In this document: piece by piece, positions 3,047 to 56,199 of the stretch
Numbering within the stretch: the first letter of the stretch is position 1
How the letters are laid out: the number at the start of each line of letters is the position of its first letter
Origin: an uncultured Anaerolineaceae bacterium
GTDB taxonomy: Bacteria; Chloroflexota; Limnocylindria; Limnocylindrales; CSP1-4
Direction of reading: 5' to 3'
Assembly (NCBI GenBank): GCA_964579825.1
Contig: CAZOHT010000010.1
Span: 36,624-100,623, forward strand
Length of the DNA: 64,000 bases
Made by a program: the position numbers and the translations under genes
Notes under the pieces: model-generated
Database searches by the model: none
What the model was told of the DNA's origin: nothing
What the model saw: only the letters and a program-made list of their open reading frames with translations

Positions 3047-3879
3047 GCGTCCCCCTCGGTGGAGCTGGAGGTGGTGGTGGCACCCGATGGGTCGGCCGGG
3101 TCGGGGCCCGTCCGCGCCTGGTGGCCGATCCAGACATGGCCGTCGGCGAACCGCTCGGCCTTCCAGATCGGCGCTCGCGCCTTGGTCTCATCGATCGCGT
3201 ACCGGGCGGCGCGGAACGCGTCGTCCCGATGCGCGGCGACCGCGACCACCGCGATGGACGCCGCCCCGAGCGGAACGTCGCCGGTCCGATGGACGATCGC
3301 CAGGCGGGTCACCCCGAACCGGTCGGCGATCTCGGTCGCGATGTCGTCGAGGACGCGGATCGCCATCGTGTCGTGCGCCTCGTATTCGAGGGCATCCACC
3401 GAGCGCCCGGCATGGCGGGCGGCCTCCGCTTCCTGGCCTGGAGCCGGCGTCCCGGGGCTCGAGCGGGTCCGCCCGAGGAAGCCGACGATCGCGCCGTCGC
3501 CGTCGGTGGCGAGGCGGTCGCCCAGCTCCCCGAGGATCCCGGCACCGAACGGGGCCTCGCGCAGTTCGAGGATCCGGAGCGGGCTGGTCCCGTCGGGCGC
3601 ATCGGCCGTGGCGTCCCCCGCAGGATCCGTGCCCGAGCCGCCGGACACCGGCGGGATCACGGCCAGTTCGTCGCCGTCGGCGAGCGCGTCGGCGGGGTCG
3701 GCGTAGTCCCCGTTCCGGGCGAACCGGACCGAGTCGCGACCGGGTGCCAGGACCGGGAATCGAGCCACGAGCCCCGACCAGCCATCGGCGACGGTCGCGT
3801 CATCGGCCAGCTCCAGGTCGACATGACGCTCCCCCACTTGCTCACGTTGGATGGCGAACAGACGGACGCGGACGTGCAC
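3043..3879 (-). CDS. fused molybdopterin synthase: MoaD-like sulfur carrier plus MoaE catalytic subunit
   Basis: The N-terminal part VHVRVRLFA...DELAVIPPVSGG has MoaD/ThiS shape with a Gly-Gly end. A linker follows, then a MoaE-like part (GAIVGFLGRTR...YEAH...ETKARAPIWKAE). GTG at 3879 is chosen because the track start lies inside the upstream OMT gene; ATG at 3909 is an alternative. The stop overlaps the dppA start (ATGA). Confidence 0.8.
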   Translation of the reverse strand: MHVRVRLFAIQREQVGERHVDLELADDATVADGWSGLVARFPVLAPGRDSVRFARNGDYADPADALADGDELAVIPPVSGGSGTDPAGDATADAPDGTSPLRILELREAPFGAGILGELGDRLATDGDGAIVGFLGRTRSSPGTPAPGQEAEAARHAGRSVDALEYEAHDTMAIRVLDDIATEIADRFGVTRLAIVHRTGDVPLGAASIAVVAVAAHRDDAFRAARYAIDETKARAPIWKAERFADGHVWIGHQARTGPDPADPSGATTTSSSTEGDA

Positions 3880-3896: not shown

Positions 3897-4562
3897 TCAG
3901 CCGCGCCATACGGCGACGAGCAGCCCGTCCCCGACCGGCAGGATCGTGGCGGTCATCCGCGGGTCGTTCAGCATCCCCGCATCGAACACCCGCAGCGCGT
4001 TGGTGTCCACGTCGTCCGGTGACGTGGGACTCACACCCGACACGCGACCGCTCCACAGGACGTTGTCCGCGACGATCAACGCGCCGGGGACCAGCCGATC
4101 CGCGACCGCCTCGACGTAGGCGCCGTACTCGTGCTTGAGGGCATCGATGAAGACGAGGTCGAACGGCCCGGCGAGCGCGGGGTCGTCGGCCTCGAAGGCG
4201 GCCAGGGCCCGCTGGTTGACGACGACGATCCGCTCGTCGGCGATGCCGGCTTCCCGCCACCAGCCCCGAGCGAGGTCGGTTCGCGCGCGATCCGGGTCCA
4301 GCGTCACGATCGTCCCGTCCGCTGGCTGCCCGAGCGCCATCCATAGCGTCGAATAGCCGTAGGCCGTCCCGAACTCCAGGACGCGCCGTCGGCCGGATGC
4401 CAGGACGGTCAGGGCGCGACCCGCGTCGCGGTCCACGATCGGCACGCCGAGCGGCTCGGCCGCGGCTTCGATGGCCGCCAGGGCGGGGATGACGGGCGGG
4501 GAGATCGACTCGATCCAGTCGAGATCGGCCGGTGTCGGGTACCAGGCTCGGTCGGTCCTCAT
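3897..4562 (-). CDS. class I SAM-dependent O-methyltransferase (family 3, caffeoyl-CoA OMT-like)
   Basis: VLEFGTAYGYS (SAM motif I), FDLVFIDALK and ADNVLW are typical of the family. ATG at 4562 leaves a 7-nt gap to the upstream stop at 4570. Confidence 0.8.
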   Translation of the reverse strand: MRTDRAWYPTPADLDWIESISPPVIPALAAIEAAAEPLGVPIVDRDAGRALTVLASGRRRVLEFGTAYGYSTLWMALGQPADGTIVTLDPDRARTDLARGWWREAGIADERIVVVNQRALAAFEADDPALAGPFDLVFIDALKHEYGAYVEAVADRLVPGALIVADNVLWSGRVSGVSPTSPDDVDTNALRVFDAGMLNDPRMTATILPVGDGLLVAVWRG

Positions 4563-23744: not shown

Positions 23745-23993
23745 CCGATCCACACGGGACTGCCGCGTCCGCGACGTGATCCGCAGAGGCAGGCTACACT
23801 GGTGCCCGCAGGCATCACATTTGCCTCGCAGGGACCGGCCCCATCGGGACCCCACCCGATCGACGTCCCACGACCCCCAAGCCCCGCGTAGGTCCTGGCT
23901 CCGGCGAGGCTGCGACCTGCCCGAGGATCCTCGCACCCTGGCGCTCACCGCCACGGTCAAGACTCTGGGACCGGGCGTCGCCATGCGACACCA

Positions 23994-24085
23994 CCCGGCC
24001 CTCGAAGCACACCCGTCGCGAGGCGGGGCCGCAAAGCCACGGGACCCCCAGGGTCAGCCGGGCTGCCGGAAGGAGTACCGATCGC
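23994..24085 (+). promoter_or_regulatory. candidate c-di-GMP-I (GEMM-I)-like riboswitch leader, copy 1
   Basis: A-GCACA-[CCCGUC-GCGA-GGCGGG]-GCCGCAAAGCC...GGUCAGCCGGGCUGCCGGAAGGAG runs into the SD and the ATG at 24086. It aligns block-for-block with the Vc2 GEMM-I core as I recall it (GCAAA / GNRA hairpin / GACGCAAAGCC / AGCGGGGUUACCGA). A second copy lies at 38657-38750 (-). Confidence 0.6.
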
Positions 24086-25534
24086 ATGCATCGGGACACG
24101 TTCAACCGGGTCGACGAGACCCCCACGCCGCTCCCCACCCAGTCCGTTCGACGGCCCCGGCCGGTGCGTCGGCGGGCGATCGGCGTCGTCGCACTCGTGT
24201 TGCTGGCCCTCGTCGGATCGACCGTCGAAGTGTTCGCCGGTGCCGCCTCGGGCGGCCTGGTGAACCCGGAGACCACGACCCAGGAGGCTACGACGTCCGT
24301 CACGTCGTACCAGGAAGGCAGCGCCAGGATCACCTACAACGGTCGCTGGGCGAACGCGTCATACAGTGGCTACTCGGGCGGACTTGCCCGCGGTTCGATC
24401 CAGCGCAACGCCGGAGCGACGTTCGCGTTCACCGGCAAGAGCGTCTCCTGGGTCGGGCCGGTCGGTCCGACGCGAGGCGCGGCAAAGGTCTATGTCGACG
24501 GGACCTACGTCAAGACCGTCAGCACATACGCCAGCCGATTCGTCGCATCAAAGACCCTCTTCAGCAAGGCCTTCACGACGTCCGGGGCCCACACCCTGCG
24601 CATCGTCGTCGTGGCGACGACCGGTCACCCCCTGGTCGCCATCGACAAGTTCACCGTGAGCTCGACGAGCACCACAACGGCGCCGGTGGCTCCGACCACG
24701 ACCGGAACCACGGTCACGGTGACCTCGATCCCGGCCCTGCTGACCGCCCTGGATAACAACAACGTGGGCCAGATCATCGTGAAGAACGGGACCTATCGCA
24801 TCAGTCCGTCCAACCAGACCGCCTCGAACTCGCTATGGATCGGCGGGCGCTTCGCGGACCGGACCAGGCCGATCGTCGTTCGAGCGGAGACGCGCGGTGG
24901 CGTGATCTTCGATGGCGGGGGCGGATCGAGCTTCGGCGGTCTGAGCTTCGAGGATGGGGCCCATCATCAGACCTGGGATGGCTTCACATTCGCGAACATG
25001 GCGGCGACGGAGACCGGGATCATCGAGGTCGGCGGGTACGTGCCGCGCCGAGCGCCCCACAACATCATCGTGCGCAACATCGTGATCAAGAGCTCATGCA
25101 CGGGCCGGGCAACGACCTCGAGTGGGCGGAGCTGGGATCATGGGATCTACATCGCCCATGCGCTCAAGACAGGTCCGTATACCCTCCGATTCGAGAACAT
25201 CACGGTGGACGGGCGCGGCGGCCTCGCCAGTGCGGTCCACTTCTACCACAGCACGTCGGAGGCCCCGAACGCCTCCAGCGTCGTCGTCCGAGGACTGCAC
25301 GTGACGGGCACCCAGCAGGCCGTCATCCTGTGGGATTCGACCCTGCGGAACATCACGATCGACGACGTGGATGTCAACGGGGCCCTCGGCTACGCCATCC
25401 GCTACGAGGGGGCCGGATCATCCGGCATCATCCTGTCTAACATCACCACGAGGAACTCCGGCTACCAGGGGTTCTACAGCACGCAGGGCTCGAAGCCGGC
25501 CGGCGTCACGTTCATCAACAACAGCTTCAACTGA
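24086..25534 (+). CDS. membrane-anchored CBM-like beta-sandwich plus beta-helix protein; paralog B
   Basis: N-terminal tail with VDETP motif and a TM segment (AIGVVALVLLALVG). A carbohydrate-binding-module-like domain follows (YNGRW...GATFAFTGKSVSWVGPVGPTRGAAKVYVDG...HTLRIVV), then a Thr-rich linker and a beta-helix domain paralogous to 19579-20619. Confidence 0.7.
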   Translation: MHRDTFNRVDETPTPLPTQSVRRPRPVRRRAIGVVALVLLALVGSTVEVFAGAASGGLVNPETTTQEATTSVTSYQEGSARITYNGRWANASYSGYSGGLARGSIQRNAGATFAFTGKSVSWVGPVGPTRGAAKVYVDGTYVKTVSTYASRFVASKTLFSKAFTTSGAHTLRIVVVATTGHPLVAIDKFTVSSTSTTTAPVAPTTTGTTVTVTSIPALLTALDNNNVGQIIVKNGTYRISPSNQTASNSLWIGGRFADRTRPIVVRAETRGGVIFDGGGGSSFGGLSFEDGAHHQTWDGFTFANMAATETGIIEVGGYVPRRAPHNIIVRNIVIKSSCTGRATTSSGRSWDHGIYIAHALKTGPYTLRFENITVDGRGGLASAVHFYHSTSEAPNASSVVVRGLHVTGTQQAVILWDSTLRNITIDDVDVNGALGYAIRYEGAGSSGIILSNITTRNSGYQGFYSTQGSKPAGVTFINNSFN

Positions 25535-25628
25535 GAGTCGCCCAGGACTCTCAGCCAATATGCCCCGATGTGCCTTGCAGGCACGCCGGGGCAGGACTGG
25601 GGTCGGATTGGGTTCGCGCTCTGGACCG

Positions 25629-26873
25629 TTGATCGCCGATACGGAGCGGCCACGCCTCCGCATCGCCATGGCCCTCTATTCCACCCTCGACCATGACAGT
25701 CGGGTCCTGCGGGAGGCTGGCAGTCTGGCTGCGGCCGGCCACGACGTCACCGTCTACTGCCTCGCCTGGGCCGGCACCACCGAGGTCTCCTTCCGCGTCG
25801 TCACGCATCGACCGGATCGCTCAAGCGTCCTGCCGGATGCCAGCAGCTCGTTCCACCGTGGTGGTCGTGTCGGTCCGCTCCGCCGACTGACACGCCTGGC
25901 CGGATGGATGAGCGGCTACATCCGGAACATCCGGGCGTGGGGCAGCTGGATCGTCGAGGACGCCGGAGCCGTCGACGCCTGGCACGCGCATGACCTTCCA
26001 GGGCTGATCGCCATCGGACCTCGCGTCCGCTCCGGTGCGGCCCTCGTGTACGACAGCCACGAGATCTTCCTCGAGGCGGGCACGGCGACCCGCCTTCCGG
26101 GTCCGGTGCGTCGACTCCTGGCCGCGTACGAGCGACGACTCGTCCGCCGCGTCGATGCGATGGTGACTGTCAACGAGGCCTACGCCGGCGTCCTCGAGAA
26201 GCGGCTCGCCCCACGCCGCATGGTGATCGTTCGGAACTGCCCGCCGCGCTGGCAGCCGACGGCCGATGGCGCTCCTCGGCTGCGGGCATCGGCCGGGCTC
26301 GCCGACGATGTCCCGCTCATCCTGTACCACGGGTCCCTCGCGGCCGATCGCGGCATCGAGCAGTCGGTCGCCGCCCTGTCCGGACCTGGCATGGAGGATG
26401 TCCATCTGGCGTTACTGGGCTTTGGGAACGTCGACCGACTCGGCATCGATGGTGCTCCGGCGTCGGCTCGCGTCCATCGGGTCGAGGCCGTGTCGCCGGC
26501 GGAGTTGCTGGGGTGGGTCTCGGAAGCCGACGTCGATGTCATGCCCCTCCAGCGGTCCAGCCTCAATCATTGGCTATGCACGCCGAACAAGCTGTGGGAG
26601 AGCCTCGCAGCTGGAGTCCCCGTGGTGGTGAGCGACTTCCCCGTGATGCGCAGGATCGTCATGGACGACCCGGGGGGACCTCTGGGCGCCGTCTGCGATC
26701 CGGCCGACCCGGCGTCGCTCGCGGTCGCTGTCCGTTCGCTCCTCGACAGGCCGCCATCTGACCGTGCGGTGCTGCGGGCCCGGTGTCGCGCCGCTGCAGC
26801 CGAGCGCTGGAACTGGGAGACGGAGTCCGCTCGCCTGATCGACCTCTATGGCGACCTGGGCCGCACAGGGTAG
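25629..26873 (+). CDS. glycosyltransferase family 4
   Basis: LRIAMALYS N-terminus, a GT-B fold and the C-terminal EX7E-type region (CTPNKLWESLAAGVPVVVSD). Start is uncertain (TTG 25629, ATG 25560 or ATG 25668). Confidence 0.75.
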   Translation: MIADTERPRLRIAMALYSTLDHDSRVLREAGSLAAAGHDVTVYCLAWAGTTEVSFRVVTHRPDRSSVLPDASSSFHRGGRVGPLRRLTRLAGWMSGYIRNIRAWGSWIVEDAGAVDAWHAHDLPGLIAIGPRVRSGAALVYDSHEIFLEAGTATRLPGPVRRLLAAYERRLVRRVDAMVTVNEAYAGVLEKRLAPRRMVIVRNCPPRWQPTADGAPRLRASAGLADDVPLILYHGSLAADRGIEQSVAALSGPGMEDVHLALLGFGNVDRLGIDGAPASARVHRVEAVSPAELLGWVSEADVDVMPLQRSSLNHWLCTPNKLWESLAAGVPVVVSDFPVMRRIVMDDPGGPLGAVCDPADPASLAVAVRSLLDRPPSDRAVLRARCRAAAAERWNWETESARLIDLYGDLGRTG

Positions 26874-37120: not shown

Positions 37121-38656
37121 CTACAGCCCCGAGTTTCCGCCCCCGTCGACCATGTTGCCGGTGTCGTACGGCAATCCCTCGGAGCCCGTGGCCTTGAGGT
37201 TCCGATACACCCCACTCGCCTGATGGAAGTTGACCGAGACGTCGCCCTGACCGCAGTTGGTGATCGTCCATCCATCGAGGATCAGATCCGTGGTCGGGAC
37301 ATCCTCGTAGAACGCGTAGGCCAGGTTGGACGCGACGATGTCGGTGATGTGGATGGACGTCTCCTTGACCGTGCTGGAGTCGATCTGGATCCCGGACCAC
37401 GTGCGACCGGATCCCGTGATGTTCCATCGACTCAAGGTCAGGTTCGTATTGCCGCGGCCGCCGGCCATCGAGATGTAGGCGCCGTAGGTCTTGTACGCCT
37501 TGTCGGACGTCGGACCACGGGTGATGTTCCGGATCTTGATGTCCGTGATCGTCACGTTCTTGCTGCTGCGGATCTCGAAGATGCCGGCCTGGTCCAGGAC
37601 GTAGCCGTCGAACGTGAAGCCCTGCATCGTGATATTGCTGGCCAGGCTGTTCAGACCGAAGTAGAACTGCCCCCATCGGGTGGAGTCGCCGTTCCCGGTG
37701 AAGGTGACCGTAGCCCCAGCTTCTGGCCTGATGACCAGTCGGCTGGACCGGGCGACGTCGATGTAGATGGCGGGCAGCTTGTAGGTCCCGGCCCTGAACT
37801 CGATGACATCGACGTTCTCGTCGGCGATCAGGGCCTTCAACTGCGACGCGGTGCCCGACGTCGTGAATGTCTTGACACCCGCAGATGGAGCGACGGTGGG
37901 GGCGGCGGTCGGGGCGGCGGTCGGTGCCGTCGTCGGAGCGCTCGTGGGGGCTGCGGTCGGGGCTGCGGTGGGCGCGCTCGTGGGGGCTGCGGTGGGGGCT
38001 GCGGTGGGCGCACTCGTCGTAGCGGCGGTCGGTGTCGCCGTCGGCGCGGGCACCTCAGCGGCCACTGGCTCGACCGCGACCTTGTTGTTCCCGCGGATGA
38101 TGAACTTGTCGACCGCCACCGTCGGGTGGCCGTTCGTCGCCAGGGAGACCATCTGGAAGGTGTGGGTGCCGTAGCCGCTGAACAGCTGCTGGAAGACCAC
38201 GGTCGAAGCCACATAGCGGCTGGCATACATGTCGACCGTGTTCACGTATGCGCCGTCGATGTAGATCTTGGCCTCACCACGCGTCGGCCCGACCGGGCCG
38301 ACCCAGGCGAACCCGGTGCCCTTGAACGTGACCGTGGCGCCCGCCCCGCGCTGGTCGGTGGAGCGCACTCGGCCACCGCTGTAGCTGCGGTAGGAAACGC
38401 GCGTCCAGTGCCCGTTCCAGTCCACGGACGCGCTGTTCTCCTGGTAGGTCGTGACCTTGTAGTTGGTCGACCAGGCGGCGACGGAGCCGCCTGAACCGGA
38501 ACCTGCGAACACACCGACGGTCGGGATGATCAATCCGACGAGGACAAGGCCCATGAGTCCGGTGGCCGCCCAATCGCGCGCACCGCGCTTGCGTGGGGCC
38601 AGGCTTGGGGTTGGCTTGGGGGTCTCGTCGACCCAGTTCGATCCATCCCAATACAT
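37121..38656 (-). CDS. membrane-anchored CBM-like beta-sandwich plus Pro/Thr repeat linker plus beta-helix protein; paralog C
   Basis: Same architecture as 24086-25534: an N-terminal tail with WVDETP, a TM segment, a CBM-like domain (WNGHW...GATVTFKGTGFAWVGPVGPTRGEAKIYIDG), an (APTAAPTAAPTS)n linker and a divergent beta-helix (ITMQGFTF, VTITDIKIRNIT). Confidence 0.7.
   Translation of the reverse strand: MYWDGSNWVDETPKPTPSLAPRKRGARDWAATGLMGLVLVGLIIPTVGVFAGSGSGGSVAAWSTNYKVTTYQENSASVDWNGHWTRVSYRSYSGGRVRSTDQRGAGATVTFKGTGFAWVGPVGPTRGEAKIYIDGAYVNTVDMYASRYVASTVVFQQLFSGYGTHTFQMVSLATNGHPTVAVDKFIIRGNNKVAVEPVAAEVPAPTATPTAATTSAPTAAPTAAPTSAPTAAPTAAPTSAPTTAPTAAPTAAPTVAPSAGVKTFTTSGTASQLKALIADENVDVIEFRAGTYKLPAIYIDVARSSRLVIRPEAGATVTFTGNGDSTRWGQFYFGLNSLASNITMQGFTFDGYVLDQAGIFEIRSSKNVTITDIKIRNITRGPTSDKAYKTYGAYISMAGGRGNTNLTLSRWNITGSGRTWSGIQIDSSTVKETSIHITDIVASNLAYAFYEDVPTTDLILDGWTITNCGQGDVSVNFHQASGVYRNLKATGSEGLPYDTGNMVDGGGNSGL
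37883..38050 (-). repeat. in-frame Pro/Thr/Ala tandem repeat (about 36-nt period) encoding the interdomain linker
   Basis: The protein reads PAPTATPTAATTSAPTAAPTAAPTSAPTAAPTAAPTSAPTTAPTAAPTAAPTVAPS. On the plus strand this appears as repeated gggctgcggtsgg units. Confidence 0.85.
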
Positions 38657-38750
38657 CCGATCGGTGCTCCCTTCGGCAACCCGGCTGACCTCGTGGGCCC
38701 CGTGGCTTTGCGGCCCCGCCTCGCGACGGGTGTGCTATTTCGTGGGTTCG
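38657..38750 (-). promoter_or_regulatory. candidate c-di-GMP-I (GEMM-I)-like riboswitch leader, copy 2
   Basis: The reverse complement reads AUAGCACACCCGUCGCGAGGCGGGGCCGCAAAGCCACGGGGCCCACGAGGUCAGCCGGGUUGCCGAAGGGAGCACCGAUCGGAUG. In a hand alignment 73 of 82 nt are identical to copy 1. Differences fall in a loop or keep pairing (A-U to G-U). Confidence 0.6.
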
Positions 38751-39046
38751 ATCCCCGGGGTGAGCCCGGGACCGGTCCGCTAGTCTCCCCGCTGAGCCCG
38801 CCGAGCGCCATGGCGGGATGGTCCCGAGCGACCGGCAGCGAGCACGACCGAGAGGCTCGGACACCGATGTCCGCTCTGGTGCGGTCCGGACGGGTCCGGA
38901 CGCCGCAGTCACGGTCAGTAGTCCTACGCGCCGGCGGCACGGCTGACCGCTGTGGTCCGGTGCGTGTGCGCACACCGACTGCCATGCCGCCTCGCGAGCG
39001 TGGCCCGGGGCTCGCCGGCGTGGGCGCGGCCAGGCATCGGTGAGCG

Positions 39047-54932: not shown

Positions 54933-55176
54933 CGGGCGGGCGAGGTGGCCTGATTTGCCGGCCGGGGGTACGATCGACACACCTTCGCATCGCCGTCGGA
55001 CATCGCCCGTTCCCCGAACTGTCCGGTGATTCCCCGCCGATCGGCCGCGAACGTCGTCTGCCGGCCGAACCGGTCGCGCTGTATCCCCGGTCCGCTCGAA
55101 GGCCGCAGGTGGGTGTCCACGATCGACATCGGACCCGGCAGTCGGCGACGTGGATCTCGAGTAGGAGGCAGGACTC

Positions 55177-56199
55177 TTGTCGGTCTTGAACGGCGTCCAA
55201 CGGACGCCTCGTCACATCCCATCCCACCGAAGGACCCGGATCGCGGCGATCGCGCTCCTGGTCGGTGTCGCACTCGCAGGGTCGCTACCCGCCGCGACAC
55301 CAGCAGCCGCTTCGACCTCTGTCGAAGCCGGACCCTCGATCGTGATCGGTCGGGGTGTGCGCACATCGACCACGATCGGCGTGCCGCCATCCATCGACCC
55401 CACCCAGCCCGCCGCCAAGACGATCTCGGTCGGCCGCGGCAAGGTCGGCGTGACCGTCCGCACCAGCAACGTGACGTTGGACGGCTACCGCATCACCGGC
55501 CCCCAGTACAGCCGATACGACAGCCGCGAGATCGGCATCCTCGTCGCCGGGACCGCGTCGGCACCCTTGCGCAACGTCACGATCCGGAACTGCACGATCA
55601 CGCGGTTCGGGTACGCCGCGATCGTGATCCGGTACGTCGAGAACTTCCGGATCGAGAACTGCCACATCCGGAACGCCGTGTACGCGGGGATCATGGTCAT
55701 CTCGGGAACGACCGGGCTGATCCAGGACAACCTCGTCCAGCGCATCGGCGTGGTCGGGTATCAGACGATGAACATGAACTCGTACGGCATCGCCCTCACC
55801 GATGCGGGCGGAACGGTGTCCCGCAACATCTCCGTCATCTCCAACACCGTCGAAGACGTCCCGCAGTGGCACGGCATCGACACCCATGGCGGACGAGACA
55901 TCGAGATCGTGGCCAACACGATCCGGCGAACGAATCGGGCCATCTTCATCACGACGACGACCGGCGGCCGTCGGGCTGCCGACATCGTGGTGAGCAGGAA
56001 CTGGATGAGTCAGCCGACCCGCCGCGTGGATGTCCGCTACCGATACCCGTACAACCAGTTCGGGATCACCGTGTACCGGGCGGATCGGGTCACGGGGACG
56101 CTCAACGGGTTCGACGGGTGGCCTCGAGGGAACCACCTGAATGTCTCCGGCAGCACCGGCGTGTCGATCACGTCGCACCGGTTGTATCGCCCGACCTGA
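55177..56199 (+). CDS. secreted right-handed beta-helix repeat protein (PbH1-type); paralog D (distant)
   Basis: TTG start 8 nt after AGGAGG. Signal RIAAIALLVGVALAGSLPAATPAAAS. Repeats NVTLDGYRI, NVTIRNCTI, FRIENCHI and ISVISNTV. Confidence 0.7.
   Translation: MSVLNGVQRTPRHIPSHRRTRIAAIALLVGVALAGSLPAATPAAASTSVEAGPSIVIGRGVRTSTTIGVPPSIDPTQPAAKTISVGRGKVGVTVRTSNVTLDGYRITGPQYSRYDSREIGILVAGTASAPLRNVTIRNCTITRFGYAAIVIRYVENFRIENCHIRNAVYAGIMVISGTTGLIQDNLVQRIGVVGYQTMNMNSYGIALTDAGGTVSRNISVISNTVEDVPQWHGIDTHGGRDIEIVANTIRRTNRAIFITTTTGGRRAADIVVSRNWMSQPTRRVDVRYRYPYNQFGITVYRADRVTGTLNGFDGWPRGNHLNVSGSTGVSITSHRLYRPT

Follow-up and report, generated by a model that had tools for sequence, protein, structure and literature searches.

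The two leaders that precede a pair of paralogous genes in the stretch of DNA analyzed here (64,000 nt, hereafter the window) are class I c-di-GMP riboswitches (GEMM-I, RF01051). As such, they are members of a long-known RNA family and represent no new RNA class; what is new is the presence of two GEMM-I members in an uncultured soil Chloroflexota of the class Candidatus Limnocylindria. Overall, the observations are best explained by paired GEMM-I leaders acting as translational OFF switches, with c-di-GMP as the most likely signal and a glycanase-like gene under control, a reading that we consider likely.

The whole window was scanned with Rfam 15 at gathering thresholds, and exactly two matches were obtained, both of them to RF01051, the family that the original prediction had put forward for testing. 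Copy 2, located on the minus strand (aptamer plus P1 flanks, 38666..38752), matched at 38746..38672 with 55.9 bits (E = 3.1e-08), and copy 1, located on the plus strand (aptamer, 23994..24076), matched at 24000..24070 with 47.6 bits (E = 3.3e-06), the gathering score of the family being 35 bits. Single-sequence minimum free energy folding of the leaders was uninformative, with z-scores of −1.35 and +1.22.

We then compared both copies with each other. The identity at 73 of 82 positions that had been proposed for the reverse complement of 38654-38735 and 24007-24088, without gaps, was reproduced exactly by script, and so was the complete identity of the first 37 nt. When this 37-mer was searched with up to three mismatches, two sites were present in the window, 24007-24043 (+) and 38699-38735 (−), and no match appeared in 100 dinucleotide-preserving shuffles. 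The nine differences between the copies fall into four places, and those in P3 fit the GEMM-I structure. Three of them, i.e., the apical loop of P3, a P3 pair that changes from A-U to G-U and the tail proximal to the Shine-Dalgarno (SD) sequence, were as described originally, while the fourth is the second P3 pair, which changes from G-C to G-U (GGGCU/GGGUU).

As had also been anticipated, the coding sequences have diverged more than the leaders, with approximately 65% identity over their first 600 nt (409/631 alignment columns) compared to 89% in the leader; the 107 nt upstream of the leaders are approximately 57% identical. These values bear on the explanation that the block is just a remnant of a recently duplicated gene, or else a protein-binding or translated leader devoid of ligand sensing. 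Both genes are indeed paralogs, and the reading frame of the copy 2 gene is open upstream to about position 38734, yet a leader that is more conserved than both of its flanks is not what a recent duplication would leave behind. With regard to translation, the block is untranslated, since the conserved N-terminus (MFWDG or MYWDG) starts exactly at the ATG that follows the SD sequence by 10 nt. The peptide HPSRGGAAKPR is present in both copies but out of frame with the gene, in agreement with the view that it is simply the RNA read in a non-coding frame.

Further evidence came from related genomes. A search with the N-terminal module of the controlled proteins against one genome per GTDB species returned 80 loci, nearly all from Chloroflexota metagenome-assembled genomes (Candidatus Limnocylindrales or 'uncultured Chloroflexia'), of which the closest, L001, was 94% identical. 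We built a covariance model, R1, from the two window copies, which themselves scored 112.8 bits (copy 2) and 100 bits (copy 1), and found 40 strong matches (57–114 bits) that correspond to 39 distinct leaders. Of the 30 loci encoding the full N-terminal module, 28 carried the leader just upstream of the homologous gene, and in most of these the R1 match stops some 10 nt short of the start codon. When 17 of the loci were scanned independently with Rfam, 19 above-gathering matches were obtained within the same clan, 13 to RF01051 (50.8–60.4 bits) and 6 to RF03167. The RNA has been kept in front of genes whose N-terminal module is, in most loci, only 36–48% identical to the query, and this retention, together with the compensatory changes and the matches to a curated Rfam family, argues against a mere leftover. 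That explanation, the translated-leader version included, is already contradicted by the data, and we regard it as extremely improbable.

A role of the block as a functional, structured RNA is supported both by the RF01051 matches and by helices that carry compensatory changes in the 40 homologous leaders. In copy 2, P2 is formed by CCCGUC-GCGA-GGCGGG and P3 by AGCC-A-CGGGGC...GUC-AG-CCGGGUU. Rather than being broken in relatives, the helices are preserved: 96.5% of 892 pair cells were standard pairs in a model-based alignment of the 39 distinct leaders, with double-sided changes in five pairs. Neither the observed pairing nor the covariation score was reached in any of 500 column shuffles, and pairing fell to 22–46% when the 3′ partners were slid by one to three columns. 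Conservation of the core is so high that variation is absent from most pairs. Among those that are informative, one P3 pair occurs as AU (27), GC (5), GU (4) and CG (3), and two P2 pairs each show a single double-sided change, from CG to GC and from CG to UA, respectively.

By contrast, the P1 helix as first drawn (GGCCC/GGGCU in copy 1 versus AACCC/GGGUU in copy 2) had to be discarded. Across the 39 distinct leaders, 80.1% of its cells were paired compared to a mean of 79.1% in shuffled columns, with 105 of 500 shuffles equaling or exceeding the observed value; one of its pairs was unpaired in 18 sequences, and the GGGYU segment is in fact the 3′ strand of P3. The real P1 consists of 5′-CCWCG pairing with CG-(2-nt bulge)-WGG-3′. 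In copy 2, where it was placed by homology (columns 9–13 of the A6 alignment for the 5′ strand), the 5′ strand (38741..38746, −) comprises CCC (38746-38744), an unpaired A and CG (38742-38741), and the 3′ strand (38667..38675, −) comprises CG (38675-38674), an AA bulge and GGG (38671-38669). In copy 1, CCUCG (24000..24004, +) faces CG (24067-24068), a GA bulge and AGG (24071-24073), within 24067..24075 (+). Column 11 of this P1 covaries with column 102 (AU 17, UA 10, CG 2), while its CG/CG pairs are invariant. The same P1, with CG/CG and an AA bulge, is annotated in the RF03167 consensus, and it agrees with the published layout of Gs1761, namely P1, a 6-nt J1/2, P2, J2/3, P3 and a 2-nt J1/3 (PMC6274999).

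Several additional features of the helical core were observed. In nearly all leaders, the two sides of the P2 internal loop are ACA/GCC or ACA/GUC; those of L031, L035 and L053 instead have AAA/GAC, like Vc2 and the Rfam consensus. Columns 23 and 42 of the A6 alignment (window positions 38730 and 38711 in copy 2; 24010 and 24029 in copy 1) change jointly, which suggests a non-canonical contact. In the leaders L017:3906-3991 and L011:3907-3992, C faces A in place of the P2 U-G wobble, possibly as a protonated A-C wobble isosteric with it.

Next to the aptamer core, the SD sequence occupies a position that is informative about the mode of control. Between the end of each aptamer and the start codon lie 10–12 nt, and the WGG in the P1 3′ strand doubles as the first half of the SD sequence, which is GGGAG in copy 2 (38671-38667, −; 10 nt before the ATG at 38656-38654) and AAGGAG in copy 1 (24070-24075, +; ATG at 24086-24088). 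This overlap of P1 with the SD sequence is shown by covariation, as the pair that covaries in P1 lies immediately beside the GG of the SD; P1 covers only three of the five to six SD nucleotides. A scan for intrinsic terminators detected no terminator-like site downstream of either aptamer; the one terminator-like match that it gave corresponds to the P2 hairpin read on the opposite strand. When 36 leaders were folded as ensembles with no constraints, the SD was approximately 42% unpaired on average, and no conserved SD partner besides P1 was found. By itself, P1 adds −0.9 and −2.5 kcal/mol in the two copies, a weak contribution which implies that the helix needs ligand. The lack of a terminator and of any other SD partner, the weak P1 and the covarying pair beside the GG of the SD all argue for translational control, and the location of the P1 3′ strand within the SD, with no terminator following it, points to an OFF switch, a direction to which we would assign a reasonable likelihood.

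The opposite logic, in which ligand binding opens a ligand-free structure that hides the ribosome-binding site and thereby switches expression ON, or control at the level of transcription or mRNA stability, was also considered. ON-type GEMM-I switches exist, and c-di-GMP commonly activates polysaccharide genes, both of which count in favor of activation. Furthermore, individual outer helices with upstream sequence are possible in each leader, and copy 1 can fold a competing CCGGC/GCCGG helix that sequesters C92 and is incompatible with the ligand. In that fold, however, the SD is free and not masked, so that this helix is consistent with an OFF logic, albeit specific to copy 1. No conserved anti-SD partner outside P1 was found, the covarying P1 pair directly involves the SD, and the scan showed no intrinsic terminator, all of which speak against these alternatives. 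They appear unlikely in comparison with translational repression.

Other pairings of the SD region were evaluated too. In many leaders, the 5′ flank is complementary over 5–7 bp to the spacer that separates the SD from the AUG, often by means of a shared palindrome, CGAUCG, and in copy 1, CAUGCGA can pair with UCGCAUG, start codon included. In a permutation of own versus cross duplexes, this outer helix was not significant (p ~0.1–0.14), and an extended outer helix is therefore regarded only as a possibility. Pairing of the P3 apical loop (CUCC) with the SD was dropped, given that the loop is constant while the SD varies. The upstream AGACU, tried as an anti-SD element, is complementary in few leaders only and is better understood as a −10-like hexamer.

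Regarding the upstream flanks, a box of approximately 17 nt, GGGACCWTCNNNNCCATNG, is present in 19 of the 40 leaders at a fixed distance, about 70 nt upstream of the aptamer, and is followed some 20 nt further on by a −10-like hexamer, NA(G/T/C)ACT. The corresponding promoter-like regions in the window, both tentative, extend over 38782..38824 (−) for copy 2, with the box GGACCATCCCGCCATGG at 38824-38808 and GAGACT at 38787-38782, and over 23925..23964 (+) for copy 1, with the box GGATCCTCGCACCCTGG at 23925-23941 and AAGACT at 23959-23964. A promoter scan detected no sigma-70 consensus match upstream of either copy. The box GGGACCWTCNNNNCCATNG is probably a promoter or operator shared by the regulon.

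Copy 1 has a peculiarity of its own in the J1/2 linker, from which 4 nt are missing (CCUCGA-AGC versus CCACGAAAUAGC); J1/2 measures 5 nt in copy 2 against an unusually short 2 nt in copy 1. The same 4-nt deletion is present in the ortholog of copy 1, L001:1998-2080, in which one P3 pair is G-C instead of the A-U of copy 1, and this pair change suggests that the short-J1/2 variant is under selection. Given both the short J1/2 and the competing CCGGC/GCCGG helix, the behavior of copy 1 may differ.

The arrangement of the leaders varies among loci. In L001, two riboswitch-controlled paralogs are found in tandem on one strand, with leaders 1.9 kb apart (1998-2080 and 3905-3991), whereas the window copies are 14.6 kb apart and convergent, with genes for a glycosyltransferase, a flippase and an aminotransferase between them, which indicates that the cluster has been rearranged. 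L003 carries two identical leaders on one strand, 729 nt apart (3175-3262 and 3904-3991), and since the first of them precedes an ORF of 121 aa only, this looks like a recent partial duplication. In a distant relative, L202, the protein is 45% identical and its surroundings are again a polysaccharide cluster of this kind. Metagenomes scanned by pattern yielded many more aptamers of this sequence type among the matches listed. Within this material, the contigs L108, L121, L127, L100 and L116, probably from other taxa, contain two or three such GEMM-I aptamers within 1–1.2 kb, and those of L108 are arranged in tandem, 160 nt apart.

We next examined the nucleotides that contact the ligand. Vc2 numbering can be transferred directly, because nt 20 and A47 are separated by as many nucleotides as in Vc2, and it places A20, A47 and C92 at 38736, 38709 and 38676 in copy 2, and at 24006, 24033 and 24066 in copy 1. 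In this family, A47 intercalates, C92 forms a Watson-Crick contact with one guanine of the ligand, and G20 makes a Hoogsteen contact with the other. C92 is a C in 40 of 40 leaders, and A47 is invariant; the GCAAAG motif that holds it is present in all leaders but L034 (GCAACG) and L053 (GCAAAA), both of which keep A47. Nucleotide 20 was variable, with 19 A, 18 G and 2 C among the 39 distinct leaders. Thus, the G20 that goes with c-di-GMP selectivity in GEMM-I is replaced by A in both window copies, which instead display the combination of A20 with a retained C92 that characterizes GEMM-Ib. Given that A20 members constitute the GEMM-Ib subclass (PMC6456294), this nucleotide bears on selectivity and not on membership in RF01051.

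The resemblance to characterized systems is close. Like Vc2 of Vibrio cholerae, an example of RF01051, the window leaders have a three-way junction, an equally long segment between nt 20 and A47, and the A47 and C92 residues; like the family in general, they possess a GNRA tetraloop on P2 (here GCGA), a conserved AG bulge in P3 and a P1 whose closing CG/CG pair has a bulged purine after it. They differ from Vc2 in having A20 in place of G20, ACA/GCC in place of AAA/GAC in the internal loop of P2, and an uncultured Chloroflexota class as host, and from the Rfam RF01051 consensus in having a short P3 that lacks the tetraloop-receptor positions. With the GEMM-Ib riboswitches of Geobacter (Gs1761/pgcA and Gmet_0970), they share the fold, the A at nt 20 (A14 in Gs1761), the C at the Watson-Crick position and a location upstream of cell-surface or polysaccharide genes (PMC6456294, PMC6140456). 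However, the Geobacter GEMM-Ib RNAs are transcriptional ON switches with terminators that are served by a dedicated synthase, GacA (PMC6456294), whereas the platform in the window appears to be translational and A20 is not conserved among orthologs.

The leaders are also very close in sequence to the c-di-GMP-I-GGC variant (RF03167). Six homologous leaders (in L002, L008, L012, L013, L015 and L016, at about 3912-3988) scored 59.8–63.9 bits with RF03167, whose gathering score is 59. Nevertheless, all six read GCAAAG, with A47, in the alignment of the leaders, and L008, whose match to RF03167 was inspected, has A in place of the G47 of the variant consensus (GCGAAG). They are consequently ordinary class I aptamers, which automatic annotation would mislabel despite their A47. 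Membership in RF03167 was likewise rejected for the leaders of the window on the basis of the A at position 47, and their best match within the clan was RF01051.

The variation at nt 20 was mapped onto a neighbor-joining tree of 35 downstream proteins, on which this position has undergone no fewer than 12 changes (among A, G and C). The sister leaders L031/L035, L004/L013 and L014/L012 differ essentially only at nt 19–20, and L032 contains one A20 and one G20 leader. C at this position was found in L019:3903-3989 and L020:3898-3994. Such lability suggests that A and G are interchangeable for one shared ligand, most likely c-di-GMP. In line with this, aptamers with A20 bind c-di-GMP with K_D values of 53 nM (Vc2 G20A) and 30 nM (Cbe 1-2) (PMC6140456). 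Judging from the sequence comparison, c-di-GMP would be the in vivo ligand of both copies despite their A20, an assignment that we favor with somewhat guarded confidence.

A different assignment would be that the window copies are of the GEMM-Ib type, with 3′,3′-cGAMP, or both cGAMP and c-di-GMP, as the physiological ligand. G20 makes an aptamer selective for c-di-GMP, and natural A20 aptamers extend from Gs1761, which is selective for cGAMP, to the bispecific Cbe 1-2, while Vc2 G20A acquires binding of cGAMP with a KD of 120 nM (PMC6140456). In Geobacter, selectivity for cGAMP depends mainly on nt 20, and the A20G exchange turns Gmet_0970 c-di-GMP-selective (PMC6456294). The occurrence of A20 in both copies and in about half of the leaders, always with A47 and C92 kept, fits such an assignment, as does the coexistence of both leader types in L032. 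Moreover, a sample of 84 pattern-selected metagenomic aptamers among the matches listed comprised 73 with G20 and 9 with A20, and 6 of these 9 precede MFWDG-type genes (five according to an automatic test, plus L131, whose N-terminal peptide reads MAFWDG).

Against this, the recurrent flips of nt 20 among the 35 orthologous leaders are unlike what would be expected of a maintained second signaling channel, and A20 aptamers also bind c-di-GMP well (PMC6140456). The 64-kb window contains no gene for a Hypr GGDEF or CD-NTase enzyme and, more generally, encodes no synthase or hydrolase of either c-di-GMP or cGAMP. We know of no cGAMP synthase in this lineage, and our literature search found no work linking Hypr GGDEF enzymes or c-di-GMP riboswitches specifically to Chloroflexota. 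We thus consider cGAMP, alone or alongside c-di-GMP, an improbable physiological ligand of the window copies, and it is similarly doubtful that the A20 leaders of the Limnocylindria regulon, these two included, sense 3′,3′-cGAMP preferentially or equally.

With c-di-GMP retained as the preferred ligand, we turned to the genes under control. The gene downstream of copy 2 (37121..38656, −) encodes a protein of 511 aa for which Pfam reports a PT repeat. From its N-terminus, this protein comprises a cytoplasmic MYWDGSNW motif, one transmembrane helix, a CBM6/35-like β-sandwich, a Pro/Thr linker and a right-handed β-helix (AlphaFold2 model, mean pLDDT 81.6). In Foldseek comparisons with the PDB, the β-helix matched catalytic domains of GH87 α-1,3-glucanases (E = 1.9e-10) and, more weakly, polygalacturonase and iota-carrageenase, with a GH28-type resemblance, and the N-terminal domain matched CBM35, CBM6 and CBM36 modules (E ~1e-4). 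Based on the predicted structure, the protein is probably membrane-anchored, outward-facing and polysaccharide-binding, with a presumed polysaccharide-cutting activity.

The gene downstream of copy 1 (24086..25534, +) encodes a paralog of 482 aa with the same anchor and CBM module and a β-helix C-terminal domain (BLASTP, 48% identity over 203 aa at the N-terminus, E = 4e-56), in which Pfam detected weak Pectate_lyase_5 and Beta_helix matches; it is followed by an ORF for a GT4 glycosyltransferase (25371-26873). Homologs have in common the MFWDGxRW N-terminus, one transmembrane helix and a β-sandwich of about 140 aa (WIGPVGPTRG...GHPTVAVD), while their C-terminal domain varies between β-helix, GH16 and alginate-lyase-like. 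The cytoplasmic MFWDGxRW(V/L) motif opens all the controlled proteins, ahead of the anchor (window positions 24086-24110 and 38632-38656), and since synonymous sites vary, it is conserved at the protein level. A name for this protein family was found in no source searched.

Both controlled genes are situated at opposite ends of a Wzx/Wzy-type polysaccharide cluster that includes a weak Wzz-like match, a Wzy_C protein, an epimerase, three GT4 glycosyltransferases, a GINT1_N-like protein, a DegT aminotransferase and a Polysacc_synt flippase. A third right-handed β-helix protein is encoded about 16 kb from the cluster (55165-56199, +; Pfam Beta_helix, E = 3e-14), and the Rfam scan of the window showed no riboswitch match upstream of its gene.

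In the mechanism that we propose, the second messenger would bind the pocket formed by nt 20, A47 and C92 and lock both the junction and P1. The locked P1 would occlude the ribosome-binding site, and translation of the membrane-anchored CBM and β-helix glycanase-like protein would drop. High c-di-GMP, i.e., the matrix-building state, would in this way hold down an enzyme that cuts or trims surface polysaccharide. It is plausible that such repression would protect the matrix.

The leaders described here would correspond to a compact translational version of GEMM-I in which the SD is part of P1, and the approximately 40 natural, near-isogenic aptamers that differ at nt 20 offer a handy set for studying how discrimination between c-di-GMP and cGAMP evolves. 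The A/G/C polymorphism at this specificity nucleotide is the sole element that specialists might find notable. If the cGAMP reading were true, it would imply riboswitch-read cGAMP signaling in Chloroflexota, in control of surface polysaccharide enzymes, and the A, G and C variants of nt 20 would be a natural series of single-nucleotide specificity switches upstream of one gene family. For the organism and its relatives, a regulator and a signal can be assigned to an unnamed, widespread soil family of membrane-anchored CBM and glycanase proteins in the polysaccharide clusters of Limnocylindria.
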